This document shows, piece after piece, positions 484 to 31,415 of a DNA stretch of 31,839 bases. The stretch comes from an uncultured Clostridia bacterium. GTDB lineage: Bacteria; Bacillota; Clostridia; Christensenellales; Aristaeellaceae. The stretch covers positions 1 through 31,839 of the forward strand of contig CALCTW010000008.1 in NCBI GenBank assembly GCA_937907055.1, given 5' to 3'. Position 1 is the stretch's first letter. Every line of letters begins with the position of its first letter. Under the pieces are notes generated by a model, which saw nothing but the letters and a program-made list of their open reading frames with translations, did no database searches and had not been told where the DNA came from. The translations under genes were made by a program, and so were the position numbers.

Positions 484-1326
484 TTATCTGAGTTCGGTAG
501 TGGGGATGACATCCATATCATCGAAGGCCTGATTTTCGCCGCCCATGGCCCAGATGAAGGTGTAATTGCTGGTGCCGGCACCGGCGTGGATGCTCCAGCT
601 GGGGCTGATGACCGCCTGTTCGTTCTGCATGACGATGTGACGGGTCTCATTGCCTTCGCCCATCATGTGGAAGACCACATTATCCTGCGGCACCTCGAAG
701 TAGAAATAGACCTCCATGCGGCGCTCATGGGTGTGCGCGGGCATGGTGTTCCACACGCTGCCCTCATCAAGACGGGTCATGCCCATGGAGAGCTGGCAGG
801 TCTTGAGCACAGATGGATGGATGAACTGATTGATCACGCGCTTGTTGCTGGTCTCCACCGCGCCGAGAGGCTTCTTGGCCGCGTCCTGAATGCGGATAAG
901 GCGGCTCTCATAGCTGCAGTGCGCGGGGGCGGATACGCAGTAGAACTTGGCGGGGGCAGCCGGATCATCGCTGACGAAGTACACTTCCTTTACGCCGCGG
1001 GTGATATAAAGGCAATCCTTATAGCCCAGTTCATACACAACATCATCGGCATACACCTTTCCGCTGCCGCCGACATTGAACATGCCCATCTCGCGGCGTT
1101 CGAGGAAGTATTCGGTGCCGAAGTTCTTCCAGATATCGATGCCCTTGTCGAGGGCAACCTTTTCATTGACAGGCATGATGCCCAGGGTGACCATACGATC
1201 CACATGGCTGTAAACCGCCGTCACCTCATCCGGGGTGAACAGCTTTTCGATCAGAAATTCTTTACGGGTCTCTTCCGTGGTATAACGCTTAAAATCACGC
1301 TGATTGCAGGAATAACGGATATCCAT
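484..1326 (-). CDS. kduI: 5-dehydro-4-deoxy-D-glucuronate isomerase (KduI, cupin fold)
   Basis: 280-aa ORF that resembles KduI over its full length (MDIRY..NQRDFKRYTTEE...HTHERRMEVYFYF...SPSWSIHAGAGTSNYTFIWAMGGEN). AGGAGG RBS upstream, TAA stop, paired with the kduD-like SDR. Confidence 0.93.
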   Translation of the reverse strand: MDIRYSCNQRDFKRYTTEETRKEFLIEKLFTPDEVTAVYSHVDRMVTLGIMPVNEKVALDKGIDIWKNFGTEYFLERREMGMFNVGGSGKVYADDVVYELGYKDCLYITRGVKEVYFVSDDPAAPAKFYCVSAPAHCSYESRLIRIQDAAKKPLGAVETSNKRVINQFIHPSVLKTCQLSMGMTRLDEGSVWNTMPAHTHERRMEVYFYFEVPQDNVVFHMMGEGNETRHIVMQNEQAVISPSWSIHAGAGTSNYTFIWAMGGENQAFDDMDVIPTTELR

Positions 1327-1461
1327 CGTTAATAACGCCTCCTTATTGTGGGTGATTGCATTATATCACAGGATGTAAGCGCTTTCAATCCCCAATCTTC
1401 CGGGTTCGGGACATTTTCAGGGCGGCAGGGACAGGCTTTACTTGTCGTACCTGAAAAGCTT

Positions 1462-1470
1462 TGCTATAAT
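1462..1470 (+). promoter_or_regulatory. Extended -10 element (TGcTATAAT) upstream of the MscS gene
   Basis: The sequence ttTGCTATAATggg lies about 45 nt upstream of ATG 1515. No strong -35 was seen. Confidence 0.4.
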
Positions 1471-1514
1471 GGGGGCATTCATCCTGTGACTGATCTGAAC
1501 GGAAGGAGAATCCC

Positions 1515-2480
1515 ATGCGTTATTCTCTGCTTCATAAATCCGGTGCCGTCCTCCTGACGGCTTCTGTTTCCGCGCTTTTTTCCTCACTTTTTTCAGTTGC
1601 CGCGGCAGAACCCGTGCTTCAGGAGATCAACGCCGTGACGGAAACCAGTGTCGGCTTCCTCAGCGATCTGGTGAAAAACATGCCGCGCTATCTGCTGAGC
1701 CTCCTCTTCGCGGTGATCGTCATTCTGGTGGGCATCCTTCTCATCCGGCTGGGACGCTCGCTGATCCGCAAGCTTTGCGCGGCCCATGAAAAGCGCCATC
1801 CGGCCCCCGAGGATCCGAACCCCAATGACTGCGACTGCGTGACCCGTCCCTCCCAGATGCGCACGGTGCAATCGCTGATCCTGAGCATTTTTAACTATGT
1901 GATGTATTTTATCATCATCATCATCGTGTTCAGCGCGCTGGGGGTGGATATCACCGGCCTGCTCACGGTGGCCGGTGTCGGCGGTATCGCGGTCGGCTTC
2001 GGCTGTCAGACGCTGGTGAAGGATTTCATCTCCGGCCTGTTCCTGCTGCTGGACGGTTCTGTGAAGGTGGGCGATATCGTGACCGTCAACGGCGCGACAG
2101 GGACGGTGGAGGAGGTGGCCATCCGCACCACGAAGCTGCGCTGCACAAACGGCAACATTCAGGTGGTGCCGAACGGCGATATCCGCACCGTGACCAATTT
2201 TACCCGCGATTACCGCTGCGCCATCGTGGATGTCACCGTGGCGCATGGTCAGGATTATACCCACACGCTGGAGATCCTGAGGGAAGAGATGGCCAATTTT
2301 GATATCGGCAGCGATCTGGTGGACGAGCCGCCTGTGGTGACCGGTGTGATCGCCTCCGACGGCCGCGCGGCGACCATTCGCATTGAGTGCCGCTGCCGCG
2401 TGAAGGACTGCTGGACCATTGAGCGTGAGATCCGTCTGCGCTGTCTGGAACGCTTCCGCGCGGAGGGCATTCGTCCCTGA
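1515..2480 (+). CDS. Small-conductance mechanosensitive channel (MscS family)
   Basis: 321-aa ORF with N-terminal TM helices followed by the MscS signature region ...GVGGIAVGFGCQTLVKDFISGLFLLLDGSVKVGDIVTVNGATGTVEEVAIRTTKLR..NGNIQVVPNGDI... AAGGAG RBS at 1503-1508, TGA stop. Confidence 0.9.
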   Translation: MRYSLLHKSGAVLLTASVSALFSSLFSVAAAEPVLQEINAVTETSVGFLSDLVKNMPRYLLSLLFAVIVILVGILLIRLGRSLIRKLCAAHEKRHPAPEDPNPNDCDCVTRPSQMRTVQSLILSIFNYVMYFIIIIIVFSALGVDITGLLTVAGVGGIAVGFGCQTLVKDFISGLFLLLDGSVKVGDIVTVNGATGTVEEVAIRTTKLRCTNGNIQVVPNGDIRTVTNFTRDYRCAIVDVTVAHGQDYTHTLEILREEMANFDIGSDLVDEPPVVTGVIASDGRAATIRIECRCRVKDCWTIEREIRLRCLERFRAEGIRP

Positions 2481-2510
2481 CACCGGGATTGTAAATTCTG
2501 CCGCGGTTTC

Positions 2511-2539
2511 TTGAGACCGGCCTTTTGCTGTGATAAAAT
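2511..2539 (+). promoter_or_regulatory. Sigma-70-like promoter TTGAGA-17-TAAAAT (with TGa extended -10)
   Basis: ttgaga at 2511-2516, a 17-nt spacer ending in tga, and taaaat at 2534-2539. It lies about 95 nt upstream of the 2635 start. Confidence 0.4.
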
Positions 2540-2634
2540 AGCATTGAAAGCGCCCTGTACCGTGTTCAGGCTTCAGCCTGCCGGAGATTTTCAGAGGACG
2601 CGCTTTGGATCCCGCTCCCGAAAGGAGAATGCTG

Positions 2635-3400: not shown

Positions 3401-5734
3401 TCATGCCTTTTCCGGCTCGGGAGAGTTGAGAAGAAGGTTCAGTTTTTCAAGCGCGGGCACCGCCTGCTTCAGCAGCTGCTCGGCATCCAGACGGCCGTCA
3501 CGCAGCAAAAGCCCAGTTTCACGGCCCATGGACAGCATGAGGCGCTTATCCGCCTTCGCGGCGGCATCATACAGGGCCGTCGGTTCCAGCTTCGTGTCCT
3601 TATCGAAGCGCATGACCAGTGAGCCGTTCATGTGCGTGATGCGGTTGATGCCCAGCCTGCGGGCTTCGGCACGCGCGTGCGCGATCTCGATCAGATTGAC
3701 GACACACTGCGGCGGCTCGGCAAAGCGGTCGATGATCTCCTCCAGCACATCCTCGCGGTCCTCCCGGTTATCGATGGCCGCGATGCGCTTGTAGATCTCC
3801 ATGCGCTGGGCCGCGCCGGATACATAATTGGACGGCAGATAGGCATCGATCTTGAGCTCGATCTTGGTCTCAACACGCTTGGCGACCTGTTCGCCGTTCC
3901 CGGCGCGGGCCTCGCGCACAGCCTCCTCAATGAGCTTGCAGTACATATCATAACCCACCTGAGAGACATTGCCGCTCTGCTCGGGACCGAAGATATTGCC
4001 CGCGCCGCGGATCTCCAGATCGCGCATGGCGATGCGGAAGCCGCTGCCGAAGGCGGTGAACTCACGGATGGCATCCAGACGCTTCTGCGCGGTCTCGCTG
4101 AGCATCTTATCCGCGCGGACGGTGAAATAGGCGTACGCCGCGCGTGTGGAACGGCCGACACGGCCGCGGAGCTGATAAAGCTGACTGAGACCGAAATGAT
4201 CCGCGTCATAGATGATCATGGTATTGGCGTTGGGCACATCCAGACCGTTCTCGATGATGGTGGTGCACAGCAGTACATCGAACTTGCCTTCATAGAAGTC
4301 CAGCATCACGTCTTCCAGCTGCTGTTCCTTCATCTGACCGTGGCCGATCGCGATCCTGGCCTCCGGCACAAGCGCCTTCAGACGGCTGCGGAAGGCCTCG
4401 ATGGAAGAGACGCGGTTGTACAGGAAATACACCTGTCCGCCGCGGCCAAGCTCGCGCACGATGGCGTCGCGGATCACGGTCTCGTTATAATCCAGCACAA
4501 AGGTCTGCACGGGGAAACGCTCTTCCGGCGGCGTTTCCAGCAGACTCATGTCACGCACGCCCACCATGCTCATATGCAATGTGCGCGGAATGGGCGTGGC
4601 GGACAGGGTGAGCACATCCACCATGTTTTTGATGTTCTTGATGCTCTCCTTGTGACCGACACCGAAGCGCTGCTCCTCATCCACGATGAGCAGCCCCAGA
4701 TTTTTGAACTGCACATCCTTGCCCAGCAGCCGGTGCGTGCCCACCACGATATCCGTCTTGCCGGACTTGACATTTTCAAGCGTCTGCTTCTGCGCGCTGC
4801 TGTTGCGGAAACGCGACAGTACATCCACCTGGACAGGGAAGGTCTTGACACGCTTTAAAAGATTATAGTAATGCTGCTGCGCCAGAATGGTGGTCGGCGC
4901 GAGGATGGCCACCTGCTTGCCGTCCATGACGGCCTTGAAGGCGGCGCGGAAAGCGACTTCGGTCTTGCCGTAGCCCACATCGCCGCACAAAAGACGATCC
5001 ATATTGAGCGGGCTTTCCATGTCCTGCTTGATATCCCGTACGGCACGGGCCTGATCGGGCGTGAGCTCGTAGGGGAACAGATCCTCAAACTGACCCTGCC
5101 ACGGGCTGTCCGGCCCGAAGGCATAGCCGGGGTTGTTCTGACGGGAGGCGTAGAGCTGCACAAGATCAAACGCCAGCTTCTTCAGGCCGGACTTGACCTT
5201 GCTCTTGGTCTTTTCCCAGTCACCGCCGGAAAGAGAATTGATCTTCGGCGGGGTATCGGTATTGCCGATAAACTTCTGCACCCGGTCGAACTGATCGGTG
5301 GGGACATAAAGCTTATCATTGCCCTGATACTGAATGAACAGATAATCGCGGTAGGTGCCCTCTGTCTGCAGCCTGACCGTGCCGCGGAAGACGCCGACAC
5401 CGTGGCTTTCATGCACCACGTAGTCGCCTTCTTTAAGATCGGTAAACGCGTCGATCCGCTCGCCGGCGTTCCGGCGCTGACGGCGCCGCTGATGACCGGT
5501 GCCGAAGATATCCCCGTCGCCGATCAATACGAAATCCTTGCTTTCAAAGCCCTGATGCTGGGTGATGGGATAGATGGCGATATCATATTCCCTGTTTTCG
5601 GCCATCTGCTCCTCCGTAATGAAGGGCACATCCACCGAAAGCTGCTGCAGCGCGGTACGAAGGCGTTCGCCGCGGTTATCACCGCCGGAAAGCAACGCGA
5701 TCTTCTTGTTTTCTTTGCGCCAGTCCGCGATATC
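3401..5734 (-). CDS. mfd: Transcription-repair coupling factor Mfd, part downstream of the in-frame TAG (RID, DEAD/helicase translocase, TRG, D7)
   Basis: The track ORF 3401..5695 contains ...[14 protein letters not shown]...[19 protein letters not shown]...[11 protein letters not shown]...SATPIPRTL...[11 protein letters not shown]... The 13 codons 5696-5734 ([13 protein letters not shown]) are in the same frame directly after the TAG. TGA stop. Confidence 0.93.
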
Positions 5735-7006
5735 CTAAGCCAGTTCCTTGATCCGGCTGTCATAACGCGGCGCGGGCGTGCTCTCCAGCTTCAGAGGCGC
5801 GGACGCCTGATCGATCAGGCCGGAGGTGCCGTGCAGAAATTCCTGCAGGGTGATCAGGGTAAACTGTCTGAGACGCGGCAGCATCTCATCCACCGACCAC
5901 TGCGCGCCCAGCATTTCAGGCACAGCCTGACCATGCTCCATGGCAGCCTTTAATTCCTCGGCAAAGCCGGCTTCACGATCCCGGCAGCGGCCGATGGCAT
6001 TCTCAGGGTAATCAAAAACGAGCACGCAATCCTGCAGCCAGTCCGCCAGCAGCTCCGGCCGCGGATAGACCGTACCGGCCCACAGCGGCAGCTGAGAGAA
6101 CGGGAAGCCTTTCTCTGCCTCCTCCGCGTCATCCGCCATGCCGGAAAGACCGGTACGCAGCGCGCGCGGAACATTGCCGCGCTCAAAGATCACGGCAGGG
6201 TCACTTTCGGCTTCATCGCCGTCATCAAAATCAAAACGGCCGCCCTCCAGCACATCGCGGGGCAGGCGGGCGCTCTGCGCCCGGATGGCCTCCCGCATGG
6301 CAGAAGCCACACGCGCGCCCTCCCCTTCCGGGATCAGGAATTCATACGCCGGACAGATCGTGACTTCATCCAGCCGTTCATCACTGCGCTGGGAGATGCA
6401 ATCGAACCGGCGGATGGAATCGACCTCCGTATCGAAAAACTCGATACGGATGGCGGTCAGCTGATCCGGCGGGAACACATCCACGATCTCACCGCGAAGC
6501 GCGCACTGTCCGCGGCCCTCCACCATATCGGCGCGGGTATAACCGCAGCGCAGCAGCCGGTCGATCAGCACGCCCGGCTCAGTCTCATCCCCCACCCCGA
6601 TGGTGACACAGGCTTCCTTGAAACGGGCAAGGGGCATCATGGGCTGCAGCAGCGTTTCCGCCGAGATTGAGAGGAATGTGATCTCCCCCCGTACGGCGCG
6701 GGAAAGGATGGACAGACGCTGGATCTCTTTTTCGCGGCCGCCGGTCATGTGGGCGAATGTGTTTTCTCTGGCCGGCAGCATGGCCGCGCGGTCCTCCAGC
6801 CACACACCGGCGTCATCCGCCACATGCATGGCCTGCTTTTCACCGGAGGAGACATAGATCACCGGTCTGCCGGTCTCCCTGAGCGCGCGGCACGCGAAAG
6901 GAACGCGCTGTCCCTCGGACATCTCAAACAGCGCGCAGCTCTCATGATCTCTGATCTTGTCAAACGCCGCCTGCCAGGCAGGCAGCATCGCGGAAAGTAT
7001 ATTCAT
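5735..7006 (-). CDS. mfd: Transcription-repair coupling factor Mfd, N-terminal part (UvrB-homology D1-D3), ending at the in-frame TAG 5735-5737
   Basis: 423-aa ORF with the Mfd N-terminal module (...GYTRADMVEGRGQCALRGEIVDVFPP...IRIEFFDTEVDSIRRFD...). It is in the same reading frame as 3401..5734. Both parts together give 1201 codons, a normal Mfd length, and the gene lies immediately downstream of pth as in Firmicutes. Confidence 0.92.
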   Translation of the reverse strand: MNILSAMLPAWQAAFDKIRDHESCALFEMSEGQRVPFACRALRETGRPVIYVSSGEKQAMHVADDAGVWLEDRAAMLPARENTFAHMTGGREKEIQRLSILSRAVRGEITFLSISAETLLQPMMPLARFKEACVTIGVGDETEPGVLIDRLLRCGYTRADMVEGRGQCALRGEIVDVFPPDQLTAIRIEFFDTEVDSIRRFDCISQRSDERLDEVTICPAYEFLIPEGEGARVASAMREAIRAQSARLPRDVLEGGRFDFDDGDEAESDPAVIFERGNVPRALRTGLSGMADDAEEAEKGFPFSQLPLWAGTVYPRPELLADWLQDCVLVFDYPENAIGRCRDREAGFAEELKAAMEHGQAVPEMLGAQWSVDEMLPRLRQFTLITLQEFLHGTSGLIDQASAPLKLESTPAPRYDSRIKELA

Positions 7007-9514: not shown

Positions 9515-10132
9515 TTATAAAACACCGGTCAGATCAAACGGCGGCGTATAGCTTTTTTCCGCCGCTTCTTTTTCCTGCGTGAAGCCCGTGAGCCCCAGGG
9601 CCTCGAACCGCTCCAGCACGCGCTCATACTCCCGGTCATTCACGCGCCGGTCCAGCGGAGACGGCAGCGAAACACCCTCCGGCGGCGTATACTGCCGCAT
9701 CAGGGAGACCGGGATCCGCGGGCAGTTGGCGGCGATCCACTCCAGCACACGGAGCGAATCCATGGTGCAGCCGGGCAGCACCAGATGACGGATGAGGGTG
9801 CCCTTCTTCATGAGACCGTCGTCATCATAGACCGGCGCGCCGGTCTGACGGATCATCTCAAGAATAGCTCCCGAGGCATTCTCGAAATAATCGGGCGCGC
9901 CGCAGCAGAGCTGCGCGATCCTGGGCGAAAAATGCTTGAGATCCGGCAGATAGATATCAATGATACCATCCAGCGCCTTTAAGGTCTCCTCCCGCTCATA
10001 GCCGGAGGTGTTCCACAGAAGCGGAACAGCCGGGCGGTAGATCTTCAAAGCCTTCAGGACCTGCGGCACGAAATGCGTGCCGGTGACAAAATTGATGTTA
10101 TGCACCCCGGCCGCCTCCAGACGGCGCAGGAT
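9515..10132 (-). CDS. Radical SAM protein, PflX/pyruvate formate-lyase-activase-like, part downstream of the in-frame TAG
   Basis: The track ORF 9515..10105 (..HNINFVTGTHFVPQVLKAL...WNTSGYE...DIYLPDLKHFS...LIRHLVLPG...) plus in-frame codons ILRRLEAAG directly after the TAG. TAA stop. Confidence 0.85.
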   Translation of the reverse strand: MLRRLEAAGVHNINFVTGTHFVPQVLKALKIYRPAVPLLWNTSGYEREETLKALDGIIDIYLPDLKHFSPRIAQLCCGAPDYFENASGAILEMIRQTGAPVYDDDGLMKKGTLIRHLVLPGCTMDSLRVLEWIAANCPRIPVSLMRQYTPPEGVSLPSPLDRRVNDREYERVLERFEALGLTGFTQEKEAAEKSYTPPFDLTGVL

Positions 10133-10384
10133 CTATGCCAGGGCTTCCGGCGAGACCTGCTTGCCGGCGCGTCCCCGGCTGATCTCCTGATTCTGGCAGA
10201 AGATGCACTTGAGCGTACAGCCGGCGAAAAAAACAGCGCCGCTGCCGCGGGTGCCGCTGATACACGGCTCCTCCCACAGATGCGGCGCCGCCCGGGCCAC
10301 CAGCATCTCATCCGTACAGGCACAAAAACCTTCGGCGGTTTTCCTGTCCGCCCCGCACCGGCGGGGACAAAGATCGCATTTCAT
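10133..10384 (-). CDS. Radical SAM protein, N-terminal part with the CxxxCxxC cluster, ending at the in-frame TAG 10133-10135
   Basis: I start at ATG 10384 (MKCDLCPRRCGADR...), which has GGAGG 9 nt upstream. It contains the radical-SAM motif GCTLKCIFCQN. It is in the same frame as 9515..10132, and together they give 289 codons, the normal length for this family. Confidence 0.85.
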   Translation of the reverse strand: MKCDLCPRRCGADRKTAEGFCACTDEMLVARAAPHLWEEPCISGTRGSGAVFFAGCTLKCIFCQNQEISRGRAGKQVSPEALA

Positions 10385-16560: not shown

Positions 16561-16598
16561 TGCTGAGGGTGAGTATAACGGCGTGAAGGCGGAAGAAA

Positions 16599-16855: not shown

Positions 16856-16859
16856 TTCC

Positions 16860-20500: not shown

Positions 20501-20608
20501 TTCCGTGGTGTATTCTATTTATTTCTCCTGATACGCTTCGCTTGCGGACGGTTTTTATCGCGCAGGCGGCAAATAGACCCGATATCATTTCCGGTGAGGT
20601 GTACATCT

Positions 20609-23416
20609 ATGAAGAATCGAAAATTCGGCACTGGTCTGCGCGCTGCGATCCTCGCGTTCCTGATCGCGGTGATTCTGTTCGTATTGCCTGTGCTGACCGG
20701 CTCCGCCGCGCAGGCCGCGTCGAATTCCTATGTGAAGACGAATCAGGCCTCCGTCAATTTCAGAAAAGGAGCAAACCTGTCCTCCGACGTGTGGGCATCC
20801 CTGCCCAGCGGCTGGGTGCTGAAGTATAACGGCACCAGCATCAAGGACGGCGGCTATACCTGGCTGAGCGTGACCGCCAATATTCCCGGACATCTGTACA
20901 CCAACTATTCCGGCTATATTTCCTCTTCCTTTGTGACCACGCTGACCACCGCGGAAGCCAACCAGTGGGAGAGCTACCCCGTGCAGAAGGGCTGCACCCC
21001 CAGCCCCGTTCCGGCGGTATCCGGCAGCTATGCCATCATCACCGCGGACGGCGTTAACATGCGCTCCTACGCGCCCGGCGGCGATGTGATGTGCGTGATC
21101 AAGCAGAATGTGGTCGTGCGCGTCATCAGCGCGCCCACCAACAGCTACGGCTGGTTCTATATCAACTACAACAATATGAACGGCTATGTGTGGAACGAGT
21201 TCGCCCGTCTGCTCACCGATGAAGAGCTGATCCAGCGCGGCCTGATGACCGCCACGCCCTCCTTCGTGACCGCGACGCCCACGCATTCCTCCGGCAGCGG
21301 CGACGGCATCTGCAAACTGGCCAAGGACGCTGTTCGTTTCCGTTCGACCCCGAACGGCAATATCATCGCCACCCTTTCCAAGGGCACCACGTTCACCTAC
21401 TGGGGCACCGGCACCATGGGCAGCGACGGTTATCTGTGGTTCCAGGTCTCCTACAACGGCACGATGGGCTATGTGCGTAAGGACATGCTGACCTTCCTTG
21501 ATCCCAGCGGCAAGGTGACCACGGCTCCCACCATTTCAAAGAACACCCCCACTCCGGCCCCCACCACCACGGTGATCCCGGACGCGACCGAGTATGTGAT
21601 CCTGACGGCCGGCGGCATCAACTTCCGCAGGACCGCGGGCGGTGACATTCTGGGCCGCCTTGACAAGGGCACGATCCTGCCCTATCACGGCACCGACAAC
21701 ACCGGCAAGTGGGCGCTGGTATATTCCAATATCTATGGTCTTGGCTATGTGAGCACCGATTATACCAAGAAGTATAATCCTCCCGGCAGCAACACACCCA
21801 CGCCCGCGCCTGTCGTGACGCCCACCCCGGCGCCTCTCACGAACGGTTATGTGCTGATCACCAAGAACGCCGTCAACCTGCGCGCGCAGACTTCCACCTC
21901 CTCCAATGTTGTGGCGCAGCTGAGCAACGGCACGGTCTGCTATCTGACGCAACCGCCGATCATGTCCGGCAGCTATATGTGGTATCCCGTGCGCACCATG
22001 AATAACTTAAACGGCTATGTGCGCGGCGATGTGGCCTATGTGCTGGCTGACTGGCAGGTGCAGTATTATCTGCAGCACGGCGTTGTGCCCACGCCTTCCG
22101 CCGGACCTACCTCCACCCCCAGCGGCAACAGCCCGTATATCCGCATCACAGCTTCCGGCACGATCAATGTGCGTTCCTCTTCCACCACCACCAGCAGCGT
22201 GGTCGGCACCACCTCCAACGGACGCGTGTACAAGTATCTGGCCACCGCCAAGGTCGGCAGCTACACCTGGTACAAGATCCAGTACACCTCCTCCAAGGTG
22301 GGCTGGGTGCGCAATGATCTGATGAAGGTAATGAGCTGGGCGGAATATTACGCCTGGGCCGGAACCGCTACCCCCACCAAGGGCAACACCGTATCCCCCG
22401 TGATCACACCTTCTGTGACCTCTCCCTATTCCTCCGATCTGAGCGATATGGCCGTGACCACCGTTGAGGGCCTGAATGTCCGCAGCGGCGCCGGTACCAG
22501 CTTTACCCGCGTGGGCAACATCAGCGCAAAGGGCACTTATGTGACCTACCTGCAGAAGTCTTCCACCGTGGGCAATGAGACCTGGTACTTTATCGAATCC
22601 GGCAATATGCAGGGTTGGGTCCTCAGCAAGTACATCAACATCTACACCAACCGTCAGAAGACGGCTTACCTGCAGAGCGGCGATCCTTATGTGATCCCCG
22701 AAGCCAGCTACACCACGCTGAGCCTTGGCAGCACCGGCAATGCCGTGACCGTTCTCCAGAAGGAACTGGTGACCAAGGGCTACCTGAGCGCCGCTGATGT
22801 GACCGGTCAGTACCTGAGCAGCACGGTGAACGCCGTGAAGCAGTTCCAGGCTGCCAAGGGCCTGACTGTGGACGGCATCGCGGGTGACGCCACCCAGCAC
22901 GCGCTGTTCAACACCGTTCCCGCCGGCTCCAATCAGGGCAGCACGGTCATTCCCGACCTGAAGCCCGTTGAAATGGTCGACTGGGTGACCGGTGATATCC
23001 AGAAGGTGTGGCTGAAGGGTGAAACTGCCATCGTCACCGATGTTGAGACCGGCCTTTCCTTCCGCGCGAGGCGCTGGAGCGGCGGTCTGCACGCTGACGT
23101 TGAGCCGCTGACCGCGGCTGACTCCGCTGTGATGTGCAAGATCTACGGCGTTTCCATCGCCCAGGATATCGCGGACCTGAATCTGTATCAGCGTCATCCC
23201 ATCTGGGTCACCATCGCCAACCGTACCTTCGCGGCTTCCATGTATGGCTGCCCGCACAACTATCCCGAGGGAGACACGATCCCCGATAACAACTTCTACG
23301 GTCAGTTCTGCATTCACTTTGTGAACAGCCGTGTCCACCGTACTGAAAAGATCGATGCCGATCATCAGGCCGCGATCAAGTATGCTTATCAGCACAGCAT
23401 CAGCGGACAGAAGTAA
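20609..23416 (+). CDS. Large secreted cell-wall-associated protein: about 9 SH3b (SH3_3) repeats, a PG_binding_1 domain and an uncharacterised C-terminal domain of about 190 aa
   Basis: I start at ATG 20609 (MKNRKFGTGLRAAILAFLIAVILFVLPVLTGSAAQA, a signal peptide). SH3b-like modules recur (..VNMRS......V...K....V.V.......GW..I.YN...GYV....). PT-rich linkers separate them. The PG_binding_1 domain reads LSLGSTGNAVTVLQKELVTKGYL...VKQFQAAKGLTVDGIAGDATQHALF. TAA stop plus a terminator. Confidence 0.85.
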   Translation: MKNRKFGTGLRAAILAFLIAVILFVLPVLTGSAAQAASNSYVKTNQASVNFRKGANLSSDVWASLPSGWVLKYNGTSIKDGGYTWLSVTANIPGHLYTNYSGYISSSFVTTLTTAEANQWESYPVQKGCTPSPVPAVSGSYAIITADGVNMRSYAPGGDVMCVIKQNVVVRVISAPTNSYGWFYINYNNMNGYVWNEFARLLTDEELIQRGLMTATPSFVTATPTHSSGSGDGICKLAKDAVRFRSTPNGNIIATLSKGTTFTYWGTGTMGSDGYLWFQVSYNGTMGYVRKDMLTFLDPSGKVTTAPTISKNTPTPAPTTTVIPDATEYVILTAGGINFRRTAGGDILGRLDKGTILPYHGTDNTGKWALVYSNIYGLGYVSTDYTKKYNPPGSNTPTPAPVVTPTPAPLTNGYVLITKNAVNLRAQTSTSSNVVAQLSNGTVCYLTQPPIMSGSYMWYPVRTMNNLNGYVRGDVAYVLADWQVQYYLQHGVVPTPSAGPTSTPSGNSPYIRITASGTINVRSSSTTTSSVVGTTSNGRVYKYLATAKVGSYTWYKIQYTSSKVGWVRNDLMKVMSWAEYYAWAGTATPTKGNTVSPVITPSVTSPYSSDLSDMAVTTVEGLNVRSGAGTSFTRVGNISAKGTYVTYLQKSSTVGNETWYFIESGNMQGWVLSKYINIYTNRQKTAYLQSGDPYVIPEASYTTLSLGSTGNAVTVLQKELVTKGYLSAADVTGQYLSSTVNAVKQFQAAKGLTVDGIAGDATQHALFNTVPAGSNQGSTVIPDLKPVEMVDWVTGDIQKVWLKGETAIVTDVETGLSFRARRWSGGLHADVEPLTAADSAVMCKIYGVSIAQDIADLNLYQRHPIWVTIANRTFAASMYGCPHNYPEGDTIPDNNFYGQFCIHFVNSRVHRTEKIDADHQAAIKYAYQHSISGQK

Positions 23417-23468: not shown

Positions 23469-23542
23469 GCCGAAACAGTTTCAATTTCAAACAGGCGTTT
23501 CTCATGCCCTTCCCATTTTTCGTGGCGAATCGATGAAAAATA

Positions 23543-23551
23543 TGTTATACT
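23543..23551 (+). promoter_or_regulatory. Extended -10 (TGtTATACT) upstream of the LRR surface-protein gene
   Basis: aatatgttatactgtc lies about 55 nt upstream of ATG 23606. Confidence 0.35.
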
Positions 23552-23605
23552 GTCATCAGAATGCAGACAGTAACTGCCGGAGGCAAAACAATAGGAGGAA
23601 CAACG

Positions 23606-24040: not shown

Positions 24041-27000
24041 AAGCCTATCTGAACTGCAACTACACGGATGAATACGCGTGGCCGCTATACAGCGTGTCAG
24101 AGCCGGTCACGCTTATCGTGAATGGCAATGAAGCGACCGTTCTGGAGATCCCGGAGGGCGTCAGCCAGATCGGTGATTTTGCCTTTTTCCATTGTAAGAG
24201 TATTACCGACCTGAAGATCCCGGAGGGCGTGCTGAGGATCGGCTGCAATGCTTTCTGTGACTGTACCAATCTGGTCGAGGTTTCTATGCCGGCGTCACTG
24301 AAAACGATCGGCGATGGAGCGTTTGCCAACACAGACAATATCCGCCGGGTCAGCATTGCCAGCATTGAATCCTGGCTGAATCTATCATTTGAAAACGAGT
24401 ATGATACCTGGTCGCTCCCGAACTGGATCAACGGCAGTAACATAAAGGACATGCGTCTATACCTGAATGGGCAGGAATTGACGGAGATCCAGATTCCCGG
24501 AAGCATCAAGACCATTCGCAGAAACGCTTTTGAGAATTTCGATCGTATCTCCCGCGTAGTCATCAATGAAGGCGTTGCCCGCATTGAAGAAAATGCTTTC
24601 GCGCACATGAGCGGACTGAAGACCCTGAGCCTGCCTGCCAGCATCCAATCGATCGCTCCCACTGCTTTTTGGAGTTCATTGGAGATTGACAGCTTGCTGC
24701 TGAGTGACCTGACAGCCTATCTGACCAGCATGCCCGCGGAAAATGACAACTATCATGGCATTCTGGGTGAGAACGGGCAGGTTTGGCTGAACGGCAAAGA
24801 GCTGTTCGATCTGATCATCCCTGAGGGTTTCACGCGCGTTCCTGCTAATGCCTTCTACAATTGGACCAATCTGCGCACGATTTCAATGCCCAATACCCTG
24901 CAGACCATCGGCACAAATGCGTTTTACCATTGTTCCTCGGTCAGCAAGATCGTGATCCCCGGCGGTGTGACGAGCATTGGAAATTCCGCGTTCAGCAGAT
25001 GCAACGGCTTGCAGGAACTGTCTCTGCCTGCCAGCCTGACAAGTGTCGGCAGTCATTGCTTTGGCGGAAGCGTCAGCAGACTGGACCTCGAAAGCCTCGA
25101 AGCGTATCTGAATTGCAGCTATGGTACCAACAGTGCGCCGCTTGAAGGTGGCACGAGCGGCCGTGCCATCTATGTGAACGGCGAGCTGCTGACCCAGGTC
25201 ATCATCCCCGATACGGTACAGAAGGTGCCCCCGCATGCATTTGATAATTGCCGTGATATAACGGAGGTCATTTTTGCCGGACCAACCACTGAGATCGATG
25301 AATACGCGTTCTTCTTCTGCAGCGGTCTGAAAACGATTGAGCTTCCCGCAGGCCTGCAAACGATCCGAAAATTAGCATTTGCATATTCCGGACTCGAATC
25401 GGTCTACATCCCGGACAGCACAACCAAAATCGAGCATCAGGTCTTTTCCCAGTGTGAAAAGCTGAGCCGTGTCAGCCTGCCTGCCAGTGTGGTCATCGAC
25501 CAGAATGCCTTCCCGGGTTCGTATACCCCGCTCGAGGTAGATTACCACGGCGATCGTATCGACGCCGCGAATCTGCTGGTGCTGGGACCATGGAACGAAG
25601 CATTGACCAACCCCGACGCAGTCTGGCACTATCGCCCGAACGGCAAGTGCGGCGAAGACCTGACCTGGGTCATTGATGACAGCGGCACACTGATCATCAG
25701 CGGTACCGGCGAAATGACTGCTTATACCGCCAGCCTGCAGCCCTGGGATCCGAAGGCGTTCAGCCGGGTCAGGATCGAAGAGGGCGTGACCACCATCAGC
25801 GACTACGCGTTTTATAACGCTCCGGTCGACATCATTCAGCTGCCCGAGTCGATGGAGACCTTCGGCGTTCACATCGTGACCTCTCATCCCATCGTGCTCT
25901 GCCCGGAATTCAGCAATGCCGATTATTGGGCATACTCCAACCAGTTTGAGACTGTCTATTCCGATCAGCTGGACATGGATCCGTTCTTCCGGGAGCATGG
26001 AAATATCGAGTTGTTCAGCGACACTACGCTGTACCGCGGCACCGTACACCGAATCACAGCCTGCGTGTTCCCGCTTGAAGCAAATGAGCTCCTGAAGTGG
26101 ACCTCCTCCGACCCAACCGTAGCCGAGGTGGATCAGAACGGTCAGGTGACTGCCGTCAACCATGGCCGAGCTGTCATCACGGCAGAATATGCCGGTGTTT
26201 CGGACTGCGTGACCGTGACAGTCAACAATTTTGAGGATGTGGGCGTGATCCACATGGACGAAACGCCGGAATTCCTCCGGCTGGGTGAAACGCTGCAGTT
26301 GTCTTTCCGCACCGTACCTCAGGATAACAGCCTCACATTCACCTATACCAGCACAGACAGCAGCGTCCTTGACGTTGACGCCAATGGTAAGGTGACCGCA
26401 GTCGGTCACGGCTATGCCTGCGTCTGGGTAGAGGCAGAAGGTGTGACCGCGGCAACCGGCCCCATCTATGTCTATACCCCCATTACAGATGTGACCCTCC
26501 CTGAAGAATTCTGGGGCGTGGCAAAGTCCTTCACGCAGATACACTGGGACATTGAGCCTGCAAACGCGAACCCCCTCTGGATCTGGACCTCGGAGCATTC
26601 CGCCCACGCAGCAGTGACGGTTTCCGAGGATGGACTGGTGAGCTGTTTCGTGCCCGGTGATATCACCATCACCATGACGGACAGGATCACCGGTCTCAGC
26701 GCTTCAACGCTGGTGCATGTCTGCCGTCCGGTCACATCCATCGAGATGCCGGAGGAGCTTACCTTTGCGGAATGCACACGATCCTACCAGTTCGAGTCTG
26801 TGGCCGTGACCATGAACGCGCGCTACATCAACCATCTGATCGTTTACACCAGTGACGACAACAACGTGGCAACCGTGACCGATGACGGCCTGATGACGAT
26901 CGTGGGACCCGGTACGGTGAATATCACCACCCGGGCCGAGAGCGGTGTATCAGCCTCCTGCAAGGTAACGATCCTGCCGGAGCACGACCGTAAAACGACG

Positions 27001-27714
27001 ACTCCCGCAGTTCTTCCCACCTGTGTGGATACGGGCAACACCGAATACTTTACCTGCGATGATTGCGGCGCATTCTTTGGATTGGTTAACGACGAATATG
27101 TAAGCATTGAGGAAAACAGCTGGATCGTTCCCGCGATTAATCACCAGCATTGGGAAAAGGCCGATGTGACAGCTGTCGAGCCCACCTGCACCGAAGACGG
27201 CTGCATGGAATACGCTGTATGCGATGATTGCGGCGCCTATTTGCTGGTGGAGGATGAAACGGTGACAGTGATCGAGGAAAACAGCTGGATCATTCCGGCG
27301 CCGGGTCATACTGAGGTCGTTGATGAAGCGATCGCGCCTACCTGCACCGAAACAGGCCTGACTGAGGGCAGCCACTGTACTGCCTGTCAGGAAGTATTTG
27401 TTGCCCAGGAGATCCTCCCTGCCACACACCGTCATGTGATGCAGTCCGGCGCGTGCTGCACCTGCGGCCGGTCATTCGACACAACAGGCGCGAAGGTGCT
27501 CACACTTCCTTCCCTGCTCACAAGCATTGCTGACAATGCCTTCGAAGGAATCTTCGCGGAGATCGTTGTGATCCCAGCCGGGTGCACGAAGATCGGCGAA
27601 CGTGCCTTTGCCGATTGCGCCGCGTTGCGGTATGTGTTCATGCCCGCGGACATCGACATTCATGACAGCGCGTTTGATGGCTGCGAGAATACGATCGAGT
27701 TTATCATCCAATAA
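24004..27714 (+). CDS. BspA-like LRR (LRR_5) / Big_2 / Cys-rich-repeat surface protein, main body (continues 23606..24003 if the T-run is 8 rather than 7)
   Basis: 1236-aa ORF. It has many IP.GV..IG..AF..C..L LRR_5 units and about 4 Big_2-like modules (e.g. TSSDPTVAEVDQNGQVTAVNHGRAVITAEY). Three PTC..(T/E).G....C..CG Cys-rich repeats lie around 27000-27480, followed by terminal LRRs. TAA stop plus a terminator. Confidence 0.88.
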   Translation: MAQLEQLSIGDLKAYLNCNYTDEYAWPLYSVSEPVTLIVNGNEATVLEIPEGVSQIGDFAFFHCKSITDLKIPEGVLRIGCNAFCDCTNLVEVSMPASLKTIGDGAFANTDNIRRVSIASIESWLNLSFENEYDTWSLPNWINGSNIKDMRLYLNGQELTEIQIPGSIKTIRRNAFENFDRISRVVINEGVARIEENAFAHMSGLKTLSLPASIQSIAPTAFWSSLEIDSLLLSDLTAYLTSMPAENDNYHGILGENGQVWLNGKELFDLIIPEGFTRVPANAFYNWTNLRTISMPNTLQTIGTNAFYHCSSVSKIVIPGGVTSIGNSAFSRCNGLQELSLPASLTSVGSHCFGGSVSRLDLESLEAYLNCSYGTNSAPLEGGTSGRAIYVNGELLTQVIIPDTVQKVPPHAFDNCRDITEVIFAGPTTEIDEYAFFFCSGLKTIELPAGLQTIRKLAFAYSGLESVYIPDSTTKIEHQVFSQCEKLSRVSLPASVVIDQNAFPGSYTPLEVDYHGDRIDAANLLVLGPWNEALTNPDAVWHYRPNGKCGEDLTWVIDDSGTLIISGTGEMTAYTASLQPWDPKAFSRVRIEEGVTTISDYAFYNAPVDIIQLPESMETFGVHIVTSHPIVLCPEFSNADYWAYSNQFETVYSDQLDMDPFFREHGNIELFSDTTLYRGTVHRITACVFPLEANELLKWTSSDPTVAEVDQNGQVTAVNHGRAVITAEYAGVSDCVTVTVNNFEDVGVIHMDETPEFLRLGETLQLSFRTVPQDNSLTFTYTSTDSSVLDVDANGKVTAVGHGYACVWVEAEGVTAATGPIYVYTPITDVTLPEEFWGVAKSFTQIHWDIEPANANPLWIWTSEHSAHAAVTVSEDGLVSCFVPGDITITMTDRITGLSASTLVHVCRPVTSIEMPEELTFAECTRSYQFESVAVTMNARYINHLIVYTSDDNNVATVTDDGLMTIVGPGTVNITTRAESGVSASCKVTILPEHDRKTTTPAVLPTCVDTGNTEYFTCDDCGAFFGLVNDEYVSIEENSWIVPAINHQHWEKADVTAVEPTCTEDGCMEYAVCDDCGAYLLVEDETVTVIEENSWIIPAPGHTEVVDEAIAPTCTETGLTEGSHCTACQEVFVAQEILPATHRHVMQSGACCTCGRSFDTTGAKVLTLPSLLTSIADNAFEGIFAEIVVIPAGCTKIGERAFADCAALRYVFMPADIDIHDSAFDGCENTIEFIIQ

Positions 27715-27728
27715 TTCAGAAAACATCC

Positions 27729-27762
27729 ATACCGCAGACGGAACTTCCGCTGCGGTATTTTT
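27729..27762 (+). terminator. Rho-independent terminator
   Basis: ataccgcag, a 12-nt loop, ctgcggtat, then tttt. Confidence 0.8.
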
Positions 27763-27958
27763 GCGCGCCATCGTGAATGAACTCCATGATACAAGCATTC
27801 ATTTCTCGTGTTCCGCAAGGAATCTGCTTCCCGGCTTTCTTATCGTAACCTATGTATGACACTCGCAGACAAAACAGTTTCAATTTCAACAGACCCTATT
27901 GACAATCAAATAAAAAGAATTATCATTAATACCGACAATCAACAAAGGAGAAAGAAAT

Positions 27959-29062
27959 ATGCTTAAGAAATGGATCTCAATTCTTATCGTGATAATCTGC
28001 CTCGTTCCGCTCGCGGCTTCCGCCTACACGATGGACGATATATACTGGTCTCTGGAAAGAGAAGACGGAAAGACCGTCCTTTACCTCAAGGGAATCAAAG
28101 GCTTCTCTTCTGATGATTCAGACAACCTTGTGATAACGACCCCCGTGGACAAGATCGTCTTTGCGATCCCGTATCCCGTATCCGATATATACAGGACCCT
28201 GCGCATTGATAAACTGTTTATTCCTTCTGTGCAGGAATATGCTGTGGAAGGCCCGCGCACGGTCTCGGACGGAATTTCCGTTGAAAATCATTTCTGGTTC
28301 CATGAGGTTGTTGTGATGGGAAACATCAAACAATGGCCGAACCTTAATAACGCCGTGATGTTCGATGATATCAGTGTCACGGTCAACGGAACGGTCGGCT
28401 TTATCCCCGCGGACAGTTTTTATCCGAGCGAAAACAGCTTCCAAAAATGCGCGTACAAAAACATTTCCCTGATCAGCAACGAGTATTACACCTTCGAAGA
28501 CGGTGTGCTTGAAGATTCGTTCACCGGCATGCCGATGTGGGCTTCTGAAGAGCATATTTTCTACGAAGAACCTTATTATTACATGTTCAACCGCGCGCAT
28601 GATGCCGTATCCCTCATTGATTACAGAGGAAAAAACACCGAATCGGAGTACTATCTTCCCGATACCACAAAGGATGGGTATCCTGTCCGTTGGATCTCCG
28701 GCCCCGCGCTCATTGCCATGAACCCTTATGATTTTACGAATGATCTGAACAAATTGTACGATAAGTTGTCGAGCGCGCAGGATCAGCTGGACCGCTGGAT
28801 CGCAGGCGGAAAAAAGACGGAAGAACAGATCAATAAGCAAAAAGAAAAGATCGATCAGTTACAGGCTGAGTATGATGCGATGTATGAGGAATCTCTGAAA
28901 ACGAGATACCGCAATACGCTGTATCTTGGGCAGAATGTCGAAGCCGTATCCGACTTTGACTCTGAGCTGCTTGACTTTGATATGCTCTATGTTCCTGTAA
29001 CATTGAAGCACTATGGTAAAGGATTGCTGGAATCAACACAAGCTGTTCGTTTCAATCCTTAA
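27959..29062 (+). CDS. Secreted hypothetical protein, paralogue 1 (degenerate LRR-like N-terminal part, C-terminal coiled-coil-like segment)
   Basis: 367-aa ORF with AAGGAG RBS and signal peptide MLKKWISILIVIICLVPLAASA. It is collinear with 29214..30317. GC is lower than in the flanks by eye. TAA stop. Confidence 0.8.
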   Translation: MLKKWISILIVIICLVPLAASAYTMDDIYWSLEREDGKTVLYLKGIKGFSSDDSDNLVITTPVDKIVFAIPYPVSDIYRTLRIDKLFIPSVQEYAVEGPRTVSDGISVENHFWFHEVVVMGNIKQWPNLNNAVMFDDISVTVNGTVGFIPADSFYPSENSFQKCAYKNISLISNEYYTFEDGVLEDSFTGMPMWASEEHIFYEEPYYYMFNRAHDAVSLIDYRGKNTESEYYLPDTTKDGYPVRWISGPALIAMNPYDFTNDLNKLYDKLSSAQDQLDRWIAGGKKTEEQINKQKEKIDQLQAEYDAMYEESLKTRYRNTLYLGQNVEAVSDFDSELLDFDMLYVPVTLKHYGKGLLESTQAVRFNP

Positions 29063-29213
29063 ATCTGTTCTTTTAAGAAAAACGGAAGGGTGTTCTGCTG
29101 ATATAACCCTAAAACCGTACGACCGGTAATGCATATCAACAATGTCAAGAAAACGGGGCAATTGATATCATAAATAATCAATTCACATTGAATACAACAA
29201 TGAGGGAAAAAGC

Positions 29214-30317
29214 ATGCTTAAGAAATGGATCTCAATTCTTATCGTAATCGTCTGTATCATTCCATTCGCGGCTTCCGCATACACAATGGATGATATCTTC
29301 TGGTCTCTTGAAAGAGAAGACGGGAAGACAGTTCTTTATCTCAAGGGTATCCGAAACTTCCCTTCCGATGGATCCTATGATTTGGTTGTGAATGTTCCTG
29401 CGGATAAAATCGTGTTTTCGGTCCCTTATTACGTTAAGGATCAATATTGGAGTCTACACATTGATAAACTGTATATTCCCTCCGTTTCGGAATATGCTGT
29501 AGAAAGCCGTGTACTCATCCATGATGATTTCTATTATGAAAACTATATTCACTATATCCATATCATTTTCATGGGAAATATAAATGAATGGCCGGATTTC
29601 AGAAACGCCTACTGCCCCCAATCATTTTCTGTTACGGTTAACGGAACGGTCGATTACATTCCTTCAAACGCTTTCTTCCCGGACGGATACAATGTTATGG
29701 ATCGGCTGTACGATAATGTCTCCCTGATCAGCAATGAACATTATACCTGCGAGAACGGTGTGCTTGAGGATTCCTTCACCGGCATGCCGATCTGGGCCTC
29801 TGAAGAGAACATTTTCTATGAAGAGCCGTATTACTACATGTTCAACTGCGCGCATGATGCCGTGTCCATCCTTGATTACAAAGGGAAAACGACCGAACCG
29901 GAATTCTATATTCCCGACACGACAAAGGCCGGTTATCCTGTCCGTTGGATCTCCGGCCCCGCGATCATTGCCATGAATCCCTATGATTTTACAGATGATC
30001 TTGCTAAGGCACTGGATAAGCTGGAAAGGGCACTGGATCAGTTGGATCGTTGGCTTGCCGGCGGGAAAAAGACAGAAGAGCAGATCAACAGGCAAATGGA
30101 AAAGATCAATGAATTACAGGCCGAATATGATGCTTTATATGAGGAATCTCTCAAAACGAGGTACCGCAATACACTGTATCTCGGACAGAACATCGAGGCT
30201 GTATCCGATTTCGATCCCGATCTGCTCAGATTTGACGCGATCTATGTTCCTGCCACGCTGACCCACTATGGCAAGGGGCTGCTGGATATGGAAAGTCGTC
30301 TCTATATCAATCCGTAA
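29214..30317 (+). CDS. Secreted hypothetical protein, paralogue 2
   Basis: 367-aa ORF with signal peptide MLKKWISILIVIVCIIPFAASA. It has the same length as paralogue 1 and aligns without gaps. TAA stop plus a terminator. Confidence 0.8.
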   Translation: MLKKWISILIVIVCIIPFAASAYTMDDIFWSLEREDGKTVLYLKGIRNFPSDGSYDLVVNVPADKIVFSVPYYVKDQYWSLHIDKLYIPSVSEYAVESRVLIHDDFYYENYIHYIHIIFMGNINEWPDFRNAYCPQSFSVTVNGTVDYIPSNAFFPDGYNVMDRLYDNVSLISNEHYTCENGVLEDSFTGMPIWASEENIFYEEPYYYMFNCAHDAVSILDYKGKTTEPEFYIPDTTKAGYPVRWISGPAIIAMNPYDFTDDLAKALDKLERALDQLDRWLAGGKKTEEQINRQMEKINELQAEYDALYEESLKTRYRNTLYLGQNIEAVSDFDPDLLRFDAIYVPATLTHYGKGLLDMESRLYINP

Positions 30318-30327
30318 ACACACAAAG

Positions 30328-30358
30328 CCCGGAAGAGAGAACCTCTTCCGGATTTTTT
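30328..30358 (+). terminator. Rho-independent terminator
   Basis: ccggaagag, loop agaac, ctcttccgg, then a ttttttt. Confidence 0.85.
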
Positions 30359-30388
30359 TATGGACAGAAACAGAATGAGAAGAATGTA

Positions 30389-30417
30389 TTGAAAAATGCG
30401 TTTTTTTCCGTTACAAT
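30389..30417 (+). promoter_or_regulatory. Sigma-70-like promoter TTGAAA-17-TACAAT for the riboswitch-folT unit
   Basis: ttgaaa at 30389-30394, a 17-nt spacer, tacaat at 30412-30417. Confidence 0.6.
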
Positions 30418-30433
30418 GCACATAACGGCCTAA

Positions 30434-30599
30434 GAGGCAGAGTAGCTGCAGGCGCGTAAAGTGTTCATGAACGGGGAGTTGTCATGAAACGAAGTCTTCG
30501 GCGCGAGAGCGCGAAGAGACGCGGTGCCTGCGGCGCATCCCGCTGCTTAAAGTGACTGCCTCCTGCAGGTCGAGGACTTGCGCGGAGGCGTTTTCTTTG
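30434..30599 (+). promoter_or_regulatory. THF (tetrahydrofolate, folT-motif) riboswitch aptamer (about 30434-30550) with an intrinsic-terminator expression platform (30559-30599)
   Basis: It matches the conserved THF-riboswitch strings I remember: AGAGUAG, GCGU(U/A)AAGUG, the P3 hairpin UUCAUGA-ACGGGGAGUUG-UCAUGAA, ACGAAG, GAGAGCGCG..GCGGUG and GCAUCCCGCUGC. The terminator is cctcctgcaggtc/gacttgcgcggagg followed by a T-run. It lies upstream of an ECF S-component gene. Confidence 0.85.
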
Positions 30600-30671
30600 T
30601 ATATGGATGCTTTGAAAACTCCTTTGCTGTTTGGCGTATCCGAATCACGCGATCAGAAAGGAGTTTTTTGA

Positions 30672-31415
30672 ATGACAAAAACCGGATCTTCAGAACCGAA
30701 AGTTCTGCCCATTTGTTCCAAGCAGTACTGGCGTACAGCGCTCTCCCTTGTAAAGGATACAAGGATGCTCGTATTCGCGGCGCTGATCATCGCGCTGCGT
30801 GTGGCCGTCAAAACGCTGAAGCTGACCACGGGCACCATCTCTTTTACATTTGACTGCTATGTCAACTCGCTGGGCTCCATTGTGTACGGCCCGATCATGG
30901 GTCTGCTGGTGGGCGCGGTAAGCGATACGCTGGGATGCATCCTTGTTCCCAGCCCGACCAGCCCGTACTTTTTCCCGTTCATCTTTGTGGAGATGAGCAG
31001 CAGCTTCATCTTTGCCCTGTTCCTGTGGAAGCGTCCGCTTTCCCCCTCCAGAACGCTGCTGTGCAAATTCACGGTGAACATGTTCTGCAATGTCATCCTG
31101 ACCTCGCTGTTCATCAAGTGGTCCTACTCCTACTTTGGGATGGATAAGGTGTATAACCTTTTCAACCTGCAGCGGCTGGTGAAAAACATGATCACCTTCC
31201 CTGTGGAATCCATGCTGATCGTGCTGATCCTGCAGGCCGCGATCCCTGTATTGCAGCGGTGCGGGCTCAAATCCATCCTGCCGGTCAAAAACCGGCTGCA
31301 GAAAAAGCATTACTGGCTTATCGCGCTGCTGCTGGTCATTTCTGTGGGGCTGATCCTGCTGTACATTTTTGTGCTCAACGATCTGCTGAAGGCCAATAAT
31401 ATCAAACTGCTGTAA
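30672..31415 (+). CDS. folT: ECF-transporter S component, folate family (FolT-like), with an extra C-terminal TM helix
   Basis: 247-aa polytopic ORF (..LVFAALIIALRVAVK......FTF..YVNSLGSIVYGPIMGLLVGAVSDTLGC...). AAAGGAG RBS. The function is inferred mainly from the THF riboswitch directly upstream. TAA stop. Confidence 0.8.
   Translation: MTKTGSSEPKVLPICSKQYWRTALSLVKDTRMLVFAALIIALRVAVKTLKLTTGTISFTFDCYVNSLGSIVYGPIMGLLVGAVSDTLGCILVPSPTSPYFFPFIFVEMSSSFIFALFLWKRPLSPSRTLLCKFTVNMFCNVILTSLFIKWSYSYFGMDKVYNLFNLQRLVKNMITFPVESMLIVLILQAAIPVLQRCGLKSILPVKNRLQKKHYWLIALLLVISVGLILLYIFVLNDLLKANNIKLL

Follow-up and report, generated by a model that had tools for sequence, protein, structure and literature searches.

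We analyzed a 31.8 kb stretch of DNA (contig CALCTW010000008.1, ~55% GC, hereafter 'the window') from an uncultured gut or rumen species of Clostridia, which we call the focal species, and describe in-frame TAG codons in two of its conserved genes, mfd and a radical-SAM gene. Sequence comparison suggests that UAG is probably translated as an amino acid, not as a stop, in the focal species and that this trait is common to at least one sister lineage. A previous inspection of the letters (the sequence-only reading) had suggested that amber codons of a bacterial chromosome might here be read through or reassigned. This idea is now supported by extra TAGs in other strains of the focal species, by 11 TAGs in the sister lineage and by those of two further lineages (L099 and L100). 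L-numbers (L004, L181 etc.) denote the homologous loci that were retrieved.

Two conserved genes of the window are interrupted by TAG

The mfd gene, encoding the transcription-repair coupling factor (3401..7006, minus strand), forms one frame of 1201 codons that runs across the TAG and ends in TGA. From 7006 to 3401 the frame is otherwise open, its sole interruption being the TAG at codon 424 (5735..5737, minus strand; context ...KELA TAG DIADW...). Pfam analysis located UvrB_inter N-terminal of the TAG and CarD_TRCF_RID, DEAD, Helicase_C and TRCF C-terminal of it, which is the usual domain order of Mfd, only split. At the TAG position, which is variable, relatives carry E most commonly, besides G, D, S, T, N, A or Q. 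Public gene callers begin a C-terminal 'Mfd' fragment at an ATG 43 codons past the TAG. Four bases before this in-frame ATG lies a Shine-Dalgarno (SD)-like GGAGGAG (window 5603-5617, minus strand: ACGGAGGAGCAGATG), which derives from Glu-Glu codons.

The second gene encodes a radical-SAM protein of the PflA-like activating-enzyme family (9515..10384, minus strand) and comprises 289 codons across its TAG, with GGAGG 9 nt upstream of the ATG and TAA at the end. Its TAG is codon 84 (10133..10135, minus strand; context ...PEALA TAG ILRRL...) and is located 20 residues past the CxxxCxxC motif. Almost all homologues among the matches listed are uninterrupted and ~289 amino acids (aa) long; the full-length ones measure 288-297 aa and show 60-72% identity at 96-100% query coverage. 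There is also a cluster of C-terminal fragments with nine members of 196 aa. In the alignment column of the TAG, the homologues have D 102 times and E 17 times, that is D/E in 119/120. Both interruptions had been noticed in the sequence-only reading, which spoke of two in-frame TAGs in conserved genes.

A Pth protein look-up yielded eight independent assemblies of the same species (ENA; NCBI GCA_045628485.1; several runs of Logan), with ~98% nucleotide identity to the window. Altogether the analysis covered ~56 kb of sequence of the focal species. The mfd TAG was kept in 6/6 and the radical-SAM TAG in 4/4 of the assemblies that cover the respective site. Among strains, mfd showed 36 synonymous and 3 non-synonymous differences 5' of the TAG, 2 and 0 in the next 43 codons, and 56 and 8 further downstream. 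With 94 synonymous versus 11 non-synonymous differences in total, purifying selection on mfd is strong both before and after the TAG. The corresponding numbers were ~16 and 4 for the radical-SAM gene, and 310 and 72 for the whole region. Because the TAGs are kept and given these ratios, both genes are, judged by their pattern of substitution, functional on both sides of the TAG. Pseudogenisation, which the sequence-only reading had named as an alternative, is ruled out by the mfd counts on either side of the TAG. Relaxed selection and mixed stop types, as would suit pseudogenes, were not found, and the TAG-bearing genes contain no frameshifts.

Additional TAGs differ between strains of the focal species

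We rebuilt 42.7 kb from the 100-kb contig ERZ27247138:k141_659371, which represents another strain of the focal species. In this strain, a cysteine-desulfidase-like gene and a gene for an SH3 wall protein each carry an additional in-frame TAG, at codons that are CAG in other strains. The latter gene, encoding an SH3_3/PG_binding_1 cell-wall protein (20594..23416, plus strand), is intact in the window strain and TAG-interrupted in others: the codon at 21887..21889 (plus strand) reads CAG in the window and in L011, and TAG in L009 and L010, where the gene calls are split into 426 and 501 aa. For the TAG site of the cysteine-desulfidase-like gene, which lies in a variable loop, the PDB alignment gave no residue assignment.

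In L009 (20061-20744, minus strand), an AddA/RecB-like nuclease was called at just 188 aa, but its frame has no stop upstream as far as the retrieved locus extends. A further in-frame stop may be located a little beyond this point.

In-frame TAGs recur in related lineages

A search with the RelA sequence led to a sister lineage (L181-L184), represented by eight contigs from at least four samples. Its RelA is 74% identical to that of the focal species, and the recJ-relA gene order is shared. Here, 11 in-frame TAGs occur in ~3,300 codons (~0.33%), five of them in recJ, four in relA and one each in an MBL-fold gene and a HemN-like gene. Each of the 11 is conserved in every strain whose sequence covers it (99.3% nucleotide identity). 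Genes of this lineage terminate in TAA or TGA only, with 0/9 TAG in L181.

Two further loci, L099 and L100, were found by a search with the 423-aa N-terminal fragment of Mfd, which returned other N-terminal fragments. The mfd gene of L099 has two in-frame TAGs (codons 429 and 474) and that of L100 has one (codon 435), all at positions that differ from the TAG in mfd of the focal species. Across the four lineages (focal species, L181-L184, L099 and L100), 18/18 in-frame stops are TAG. Random nonsense mutation at the given codon usage is expected to yield a TAG share of 53-62%, which makes 18/18 improbable (P ~1e-4).

Fragmented gene calls of mfd or relA are not in themselves a sign of in-frame TAG: in L101, L102, L187 and L188, which served as negative controls, they are due to frameshifts. 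L185 and L025, two more negative controls, have TAG terminators. In L186, likewise a negative control and from the same ENA study series, relA has an in-frame TAA at a conserved Gln near the contig end and terminates in TAG (79-81 and 1501-1503). L186 appears to use the standard code because its relA ends with TAG. An unselected metagenome contig, L103, encodes an Mfd 74% identical to that of the window and has a TAG (595-597) at a conserved Tyr/Phe in helicase motif Ia (AQQH#Y, with # for the TAG).

TAG is rare as a terminator throughout the clade

All of the ~23 open reading frames (ORFs) between 484 and 31415 of the window terminate in TAA (14) or TGA (9). The sequence-only reading had counted 15 TAA, 7 TGA and no TAG in 22 genes; the zero for TAG holds, and the two tallies differ because different hypothetical or frameshifted ORFs were included. 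It had also seen no in-frame TAA or TGA, and indeed none is present in any conserved gene of the window. When the window and ERZ27247138:k141_659371 are taken together, ~42 distinct genes of the focal species have 0 TAG terminators and 0 in-frame TAA or TGA. Those gene calls of the focal species that seem to end in TAG are all interrupted conserved genes.

We determined the terminators of the 12 nearest GTDB relatives (L019-L030) using a purpose-written simple codon-usage gene caller. Only 4/141 gene calls ended in TAG, three of them true terminators (~2%) and one an in-frame candidate in a transposase-like gene. The probability of finding 0/42 TAG terminators is 0.28 at a baseline of 3% and 0.03 at one of 8%. 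Since the baseline in L019-L030 is equally low, 0/42 is unremarkable, and we dropped the missing TAG terminators as a statistical argument. The rarity of TAG as a terminator is a property of the clade and not of the focal species. The earlier argument that TAG never terminates a gene is thus true of the window, but weaker than thought.

The true TAG terminators of the relatives are located in L021 (21874) and L025 (9736 and 13004) and are followed by a second in-frame stop after 8, 13 and 4 codons, respectively. The in-frame candidate belongs to L022, from a red-deer 'Christensenellaceae' metagenome-assembled genome (MAG), where a TAG (14310-14312) joins parts of 93 and 178 aa of an Rpn/PD-(D/E)XK transposase-like gene. 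This may be a pseudogene or a further sense TAG. Out-of-frame TAG is scarce as well: NNT-AGN codon junctions are nearly absent from coding regions (0-2 versus ~57 expected in the window). This shortage was dropped as a special trait of the focal species, as it was the same in all relatives checked (L019-L053), including Lachnospiraceae.

TAG most likely stands for glutamate in the sister lineage

We asked which amino acid the TAGs might encode by inspecting the aligned residues of homologues. Several TAGs of the sister lineage fall on conserved glutamates. RelA position 190 is E in 53/54 homologues and RecJ position 354 is E in 3/3 solved RecJ structures, while at RecJ positions 459 and 467 the focal species has E, encoded by GAG, and most structures show E too. 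The other TAG columns of this lineage contain mixtures of D, E, Q and N. A Codetta-style sum of log-odds gave +8.7 for E, -2.2 for D and -6.6 for Q. In the focal species the log-odds were +2.0 for Q and +1.5 for E, which is ambiguous when taken alone. From these alignments, the most likely meaning of TAG is Glu for the sister lineage, and one of Glu and Gln for the focal species.

How UAG might be decoded

If UAG is a sense codon, full-length proteins would be made from mfd, from the radical-SAM gene and, in some strains, from the cysteine-desulfidase-like and SH3 cell-wall genes. Decoding would require a CUA-anticodon tRNA that carries either Gln or Glu, the latter having its best support in the sister lineage, and recognition of UAG by release factor 1 (RF1) would be lost or weakened. 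TAG would first have become very rare as a terminator clade-wide and would now be re-entering genes as a sense codon, by a route of the 'codon capture' or the 'ambiguous intermediate' type.

Decoding looks independent of local context, because the 90 nt after 15 TAG sites shared no common RNA structure (folding z-scores of +0.9 to -2.8). Signal-dependent recoding of the SECIS or PYLIS kind was dropped, as no conserved RNA structure is present beside the TAGs. An Rfam scan yielded a tetrahydrofolate (THF) riboswitch as its sole match.

ARAGORN found no CUA tRNA in 70+ loci, comprising the window and loci of the same species, the sister lineage and relatives; the window and the same-species and sister loci gave no tRNA of any kind. 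One call, a 'tRNA-Stop(tta)' in L023, was rejected as a false positive since it lies inside a gene and folds poorly. A regular-expression search of 181 loci gave no match to the release-factor motif GGQ[HN]VN.

A wider proposal, which we consider possible though short of probable, is that uncultured Clostridia of rumen and gut, the focal species included, form a clade at family level that reads UAG as Glu by means of a tRNA-Glu(CUA), with RF1 lost or retuned. This would be the first amber reassignment in a bacterial chromosome and the first stop-to-Glu change outside eukaryotes. The lineages would then represent different stages of TAG re-accumulation, from ~0.02% in the focal species to ~0.33% in L181.

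Weighing the alternatives

Several observations weigh against sense decoding of TAG. In the ~56 kb of the focal species, neither a tRNA nor a release-factor gene was found (ARAGORN; motif search). The density of TAG in this species is low, with 2-4 in ~14,000 codons (~0.02%), and the four genes that bear it are all non-essential. The distribution in relatives looks patchy: in-frame TAG has no more than one candidate (L022) among the 12 nearest GTDB genomes, L021, L025, L185 and L186 have genes that end in TAG, and relA of L186 has its in-frame TAA. The TAG of L103 fits neither Glu nor Gln and may be a true nonsense allele or a case of near-cognate reading. The SD-like GGAGGAG and the ATG that follow the mfd TAG make a split gene with a restart possible. 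Lastly, CAG and TAG replaced each other at 1/198 sites between two strains, less often than the synonymous codons CTG and TTG (11/411). For this reason, TAG is tolerated, yet it is not a freely neutral or interchangeable equivalent of the Gln codon CAG. The low rate fits a conservative replacement between Q and E as well as, or better than, a synonymous change.

Non-essential genes and a candidate restart 43 codons past the mfd TAG (GGAGGAG-N4-ATG) are also what one might expect if the TAGs were ordinary nonsense alleles in dispensable genes, which are either expressed as two pieces after a downstream restart or tolerated as losses. GTG or TTG codons follow the other TAGs, 2/4 TAGs of the focal species are strain polymorphisms that stem from the commonest type of mutation (CAG to TAG), and TAG, at 53-62% of random nonsense mutations, is the expected majority. 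Broken genes do occur, as seen from the TAA in relA of L186 and the frameshifts in L101, L102, L187 and L188. We still regard this explanation as unlikely. All 18 in-frame stops are TAG, a codon unseen as a terminator in the examined sequence of these four lineages, and the radical-SAM protein would be split inside its catalytic core. With five stops in recJ and four in relA, kept across strains, it is implausible that these proteins work as 4-6 pieces. Compared with relatives, the 43 codons between the mfd TAG and the restart candidate are conserved like their flanks, with 2 synonymous and 0 non-synonymous differences among strains. A sequencing or assembly artefact has a negligible chance of being the cause. 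Although the contig is metagenome-derived and its LRR gene has a homopolymer frameshift, the same TAGs recur in all independent assemblies in which the site is covered. These assemblies come from several studies and pipelines and show ~2% of genuine nucleotide divergence around the TAGs. Assembly error, the second alternative of the sequence-only reading, is thereby ruled out.

Two other explanations also invoke reading of UAG, but differ in what is inserted. TAG might be read as pyrrolysine (Pyl) by a pylT/pylS system, with TAGs accumulating wherever Pyl is tolerated. Low clade-wide use of TAG as a terminator, combined with in-frame TAGs here and there in housekeeping genes, is reminiscent of Pyl-decoding archaea, and rumen and gut habitats are rich in methylamines. 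Moreover, the residues aligned to the TAGs are heterogeneous in the focal species, L099 and L103. However, the TAGs of the sister lineage are concentrated at conserved or invariant Glu positions (E +8.7 versus D -2.2), encoded by GAG in the focal species, which would suit a Glu codon and is unlike what a bulky lysine derivative would leave. No pyl or methyltransferase genes are present in the ~56 kb of focal-species sequence, and a literature search found nothing that links Pyl to Christensenellales. We judge Pyl decoding to be quite unlikely. Alternatively, RF1 might be lost or weakened without any dedicated suppressor tRNA, so that near-cognate tRNAs (Gln, Tyr, Lys, Glu, Trp) read UAG slowly and give mixed products. 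The great overall rarity of TAG would suit this scenario, as would the aligned residues, which include E, Q, K and the conserved Y of L103, all one base from TAG, and the seemingly mild selection against CAG-TAG changes. It is made very unlikely by the sister lineage, in which five TAGs in one gene and a share of ~0.33% of codons would be very costly without efficient decoding, and in which the strong Glu signal favours one defined meaning.

Gene content and variable regions of the window

Pfam analysis of the window identified kduI, an MscS channel, mfd, pth, an ABC exporter, the radical-SAM enzyme, a peptidoglycan (PG)-binding protein, an ATP-grasp enzyme, ychF, a DHODH-like Fe-S protein, birA, trmO, the SH3/PG-binding wall protein, a BspA-type LRR protein, an ECF S-component and nth. 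The sequence-only reading had called the locus clearly chromosomal on the strength of pth, mfd, ychF, birA, trmO and nth, each of which is borne out by Pfam. In another strain of the focal species, dnaN, relA and recJ sit within 20 kb. Among named organisms, the closest are MAGs from rumen and gut labelled 'Clostridia' and 'Christensenellaceae', in which the C-terminal part of Mfd is 68-70% identical to that of the window. A scan of GTDB representative genomes with the C-terminal part of Mfd found only relatives, at identities of at most 70%, and a metagenome scan returned only short contigs, all from relatives.

The THF riboswitch (30436-30547, plus strand; Rfam RF01831, 79 bits) is located just 5' of the gene for the ECF-transporter S component (30672-31415). 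This vicinity suggests that the transporter may accept a folate-family substrate.

Two regions of the window vary between strains. A low-GC insert at 16500-18050 (~44% versus 57%) holds an HTH_3 regulator (17266-17829, minus strand) and a 176-aa ORF without Pfam match (16583-17113). Strain ERZ27247138 is devoid of this insert, and its DHODH-like and DUF6198 genes are just 270 bp apart. A strain-specific block at 23500-30400 is likewise absent from ERZ27247138, in which the ECF gene comes immediately after the SH3 gene. The block contains a BspA-type LRR/Big_2 surface protein gene that is broken near 24000 by a frameshift within a T7 run, and two adjoining low-GC ORFs of 367 aa each (27959-29062 and 29214-30317) without Pfam matches. 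The frameshift is the one that had been described earlier as a homopolymer frameshift in the LRR gene; it may be phase-variable.

Significance and comparison with known systems

To our knowledge, all accepted stop-codon reassignments in bacteria concern TGA. The sequence-only reading had likewise stated that sense use of TAG is not an accepted general code in free-living bacterial chromosomes, and our literature search agrees with it, since sense TAG was found for phages (Gln), archaea (Pyl) and eukaryotes only. Neither a 2026 tool paper nor a 2026 screen of ~2.7 million assemblies lists a bacterial TAG reassignment. Our data point to a change of TAG from stop to amino acid that is as yet unreported for any bacterial chromosome, a change that is strongly indicated but not proven.

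If true, TAG is decoded in a GC-rich and apparently free-living clade of bacteria. This would add to the routes by which genetic codes are known to evolve, and would provide natural lineages at early and later stages of codon capture. Such a clade would also offer a candidate natural pair of amber-decoding tRNA and synthetase, and possibly an RF1-independent bacterium, both of which would be useful for genetic code expansion. At a practical level, gene calling with table 11 splits genes in these MAGs, so that public databases list 2-4 'proteins' each for mfd, recJ and relA, and the split calls distort the completeness and annotation statistics of these MAGs.

The closest bacterial parallels are the TGA reassignments of NCBI tables 4 and 25, known from Mycoplasmatales, some endosymbionts, Gracilibacteria/Absconditabacteria and, recently, Eggerthellaceae. 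There, too, a stop codon occurs in-frame in conserved chromosomal genes, and the trait is one of a lineage and not of a single gene. In the sequence examined here, TAG was also unseen as a terminator, in ~42 genes of the focal species and 9 of L181, against a baseline of ~2% in relatives. Those systems involve TGA and RF2, whereas TAG and RF1 would be concerned here. In addition, the genomes described here are GC-rich (55-61%) and look free-living and not reduced, the TAG density of the focal species is very low and the distribution of the trait in relatives looks patchy. Recoded gut phages that use code 15 (TAG to Gln with phage suppressor tRNAs; crAss-like and Lak phages) share the gut-associated sense use of TAG, and the two polymorphisms between TAG and CAG would fit Gln. 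In contrast to the phages, the TAGs described here are found in chromosomal housekeeping genes (pth-mfd and recJ-relA, with dnaN nearby) and not in phage late genes, and in the sister lineage they align with Glu and not with Gln.

In the archaeal 'code 34', all TAG codons encode Pyl (Kivenson et al., bioRxiv 10.1101/2024.09.30.615893). As would hold in our case, only TAG changes its meaning and TAA and TGA remain stops, the density of TAG varies between lineages, the distribution is sporadic and table 11 splits genes. The differences are that we deal with Bacteria and that the TAG positions indicate a canonical acidic or amide residue. Reading of UAG as Glu, as inferred here for the sister lineage, is known from the eukaryotic UAR-to-Glu codes (table 30, peritrich ciliates; table 31, Blastocrithidia). 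These codes reassign UAA as well and depend on unrelated termination machinery, while TAA is the commonest terminator of the window (14/23) and never stands in-frame. Finally, chromosomal ambers are tolerated in laboratory amber-suppressor strains of E. coli (supE/supF) and in recoded E. coli with deleted RF1, by virtue of a CUA tRNA or of RF1 loss. Those strains are constructs or mutants, whereas the state described here is fixed in wild populations and shared between lineages.

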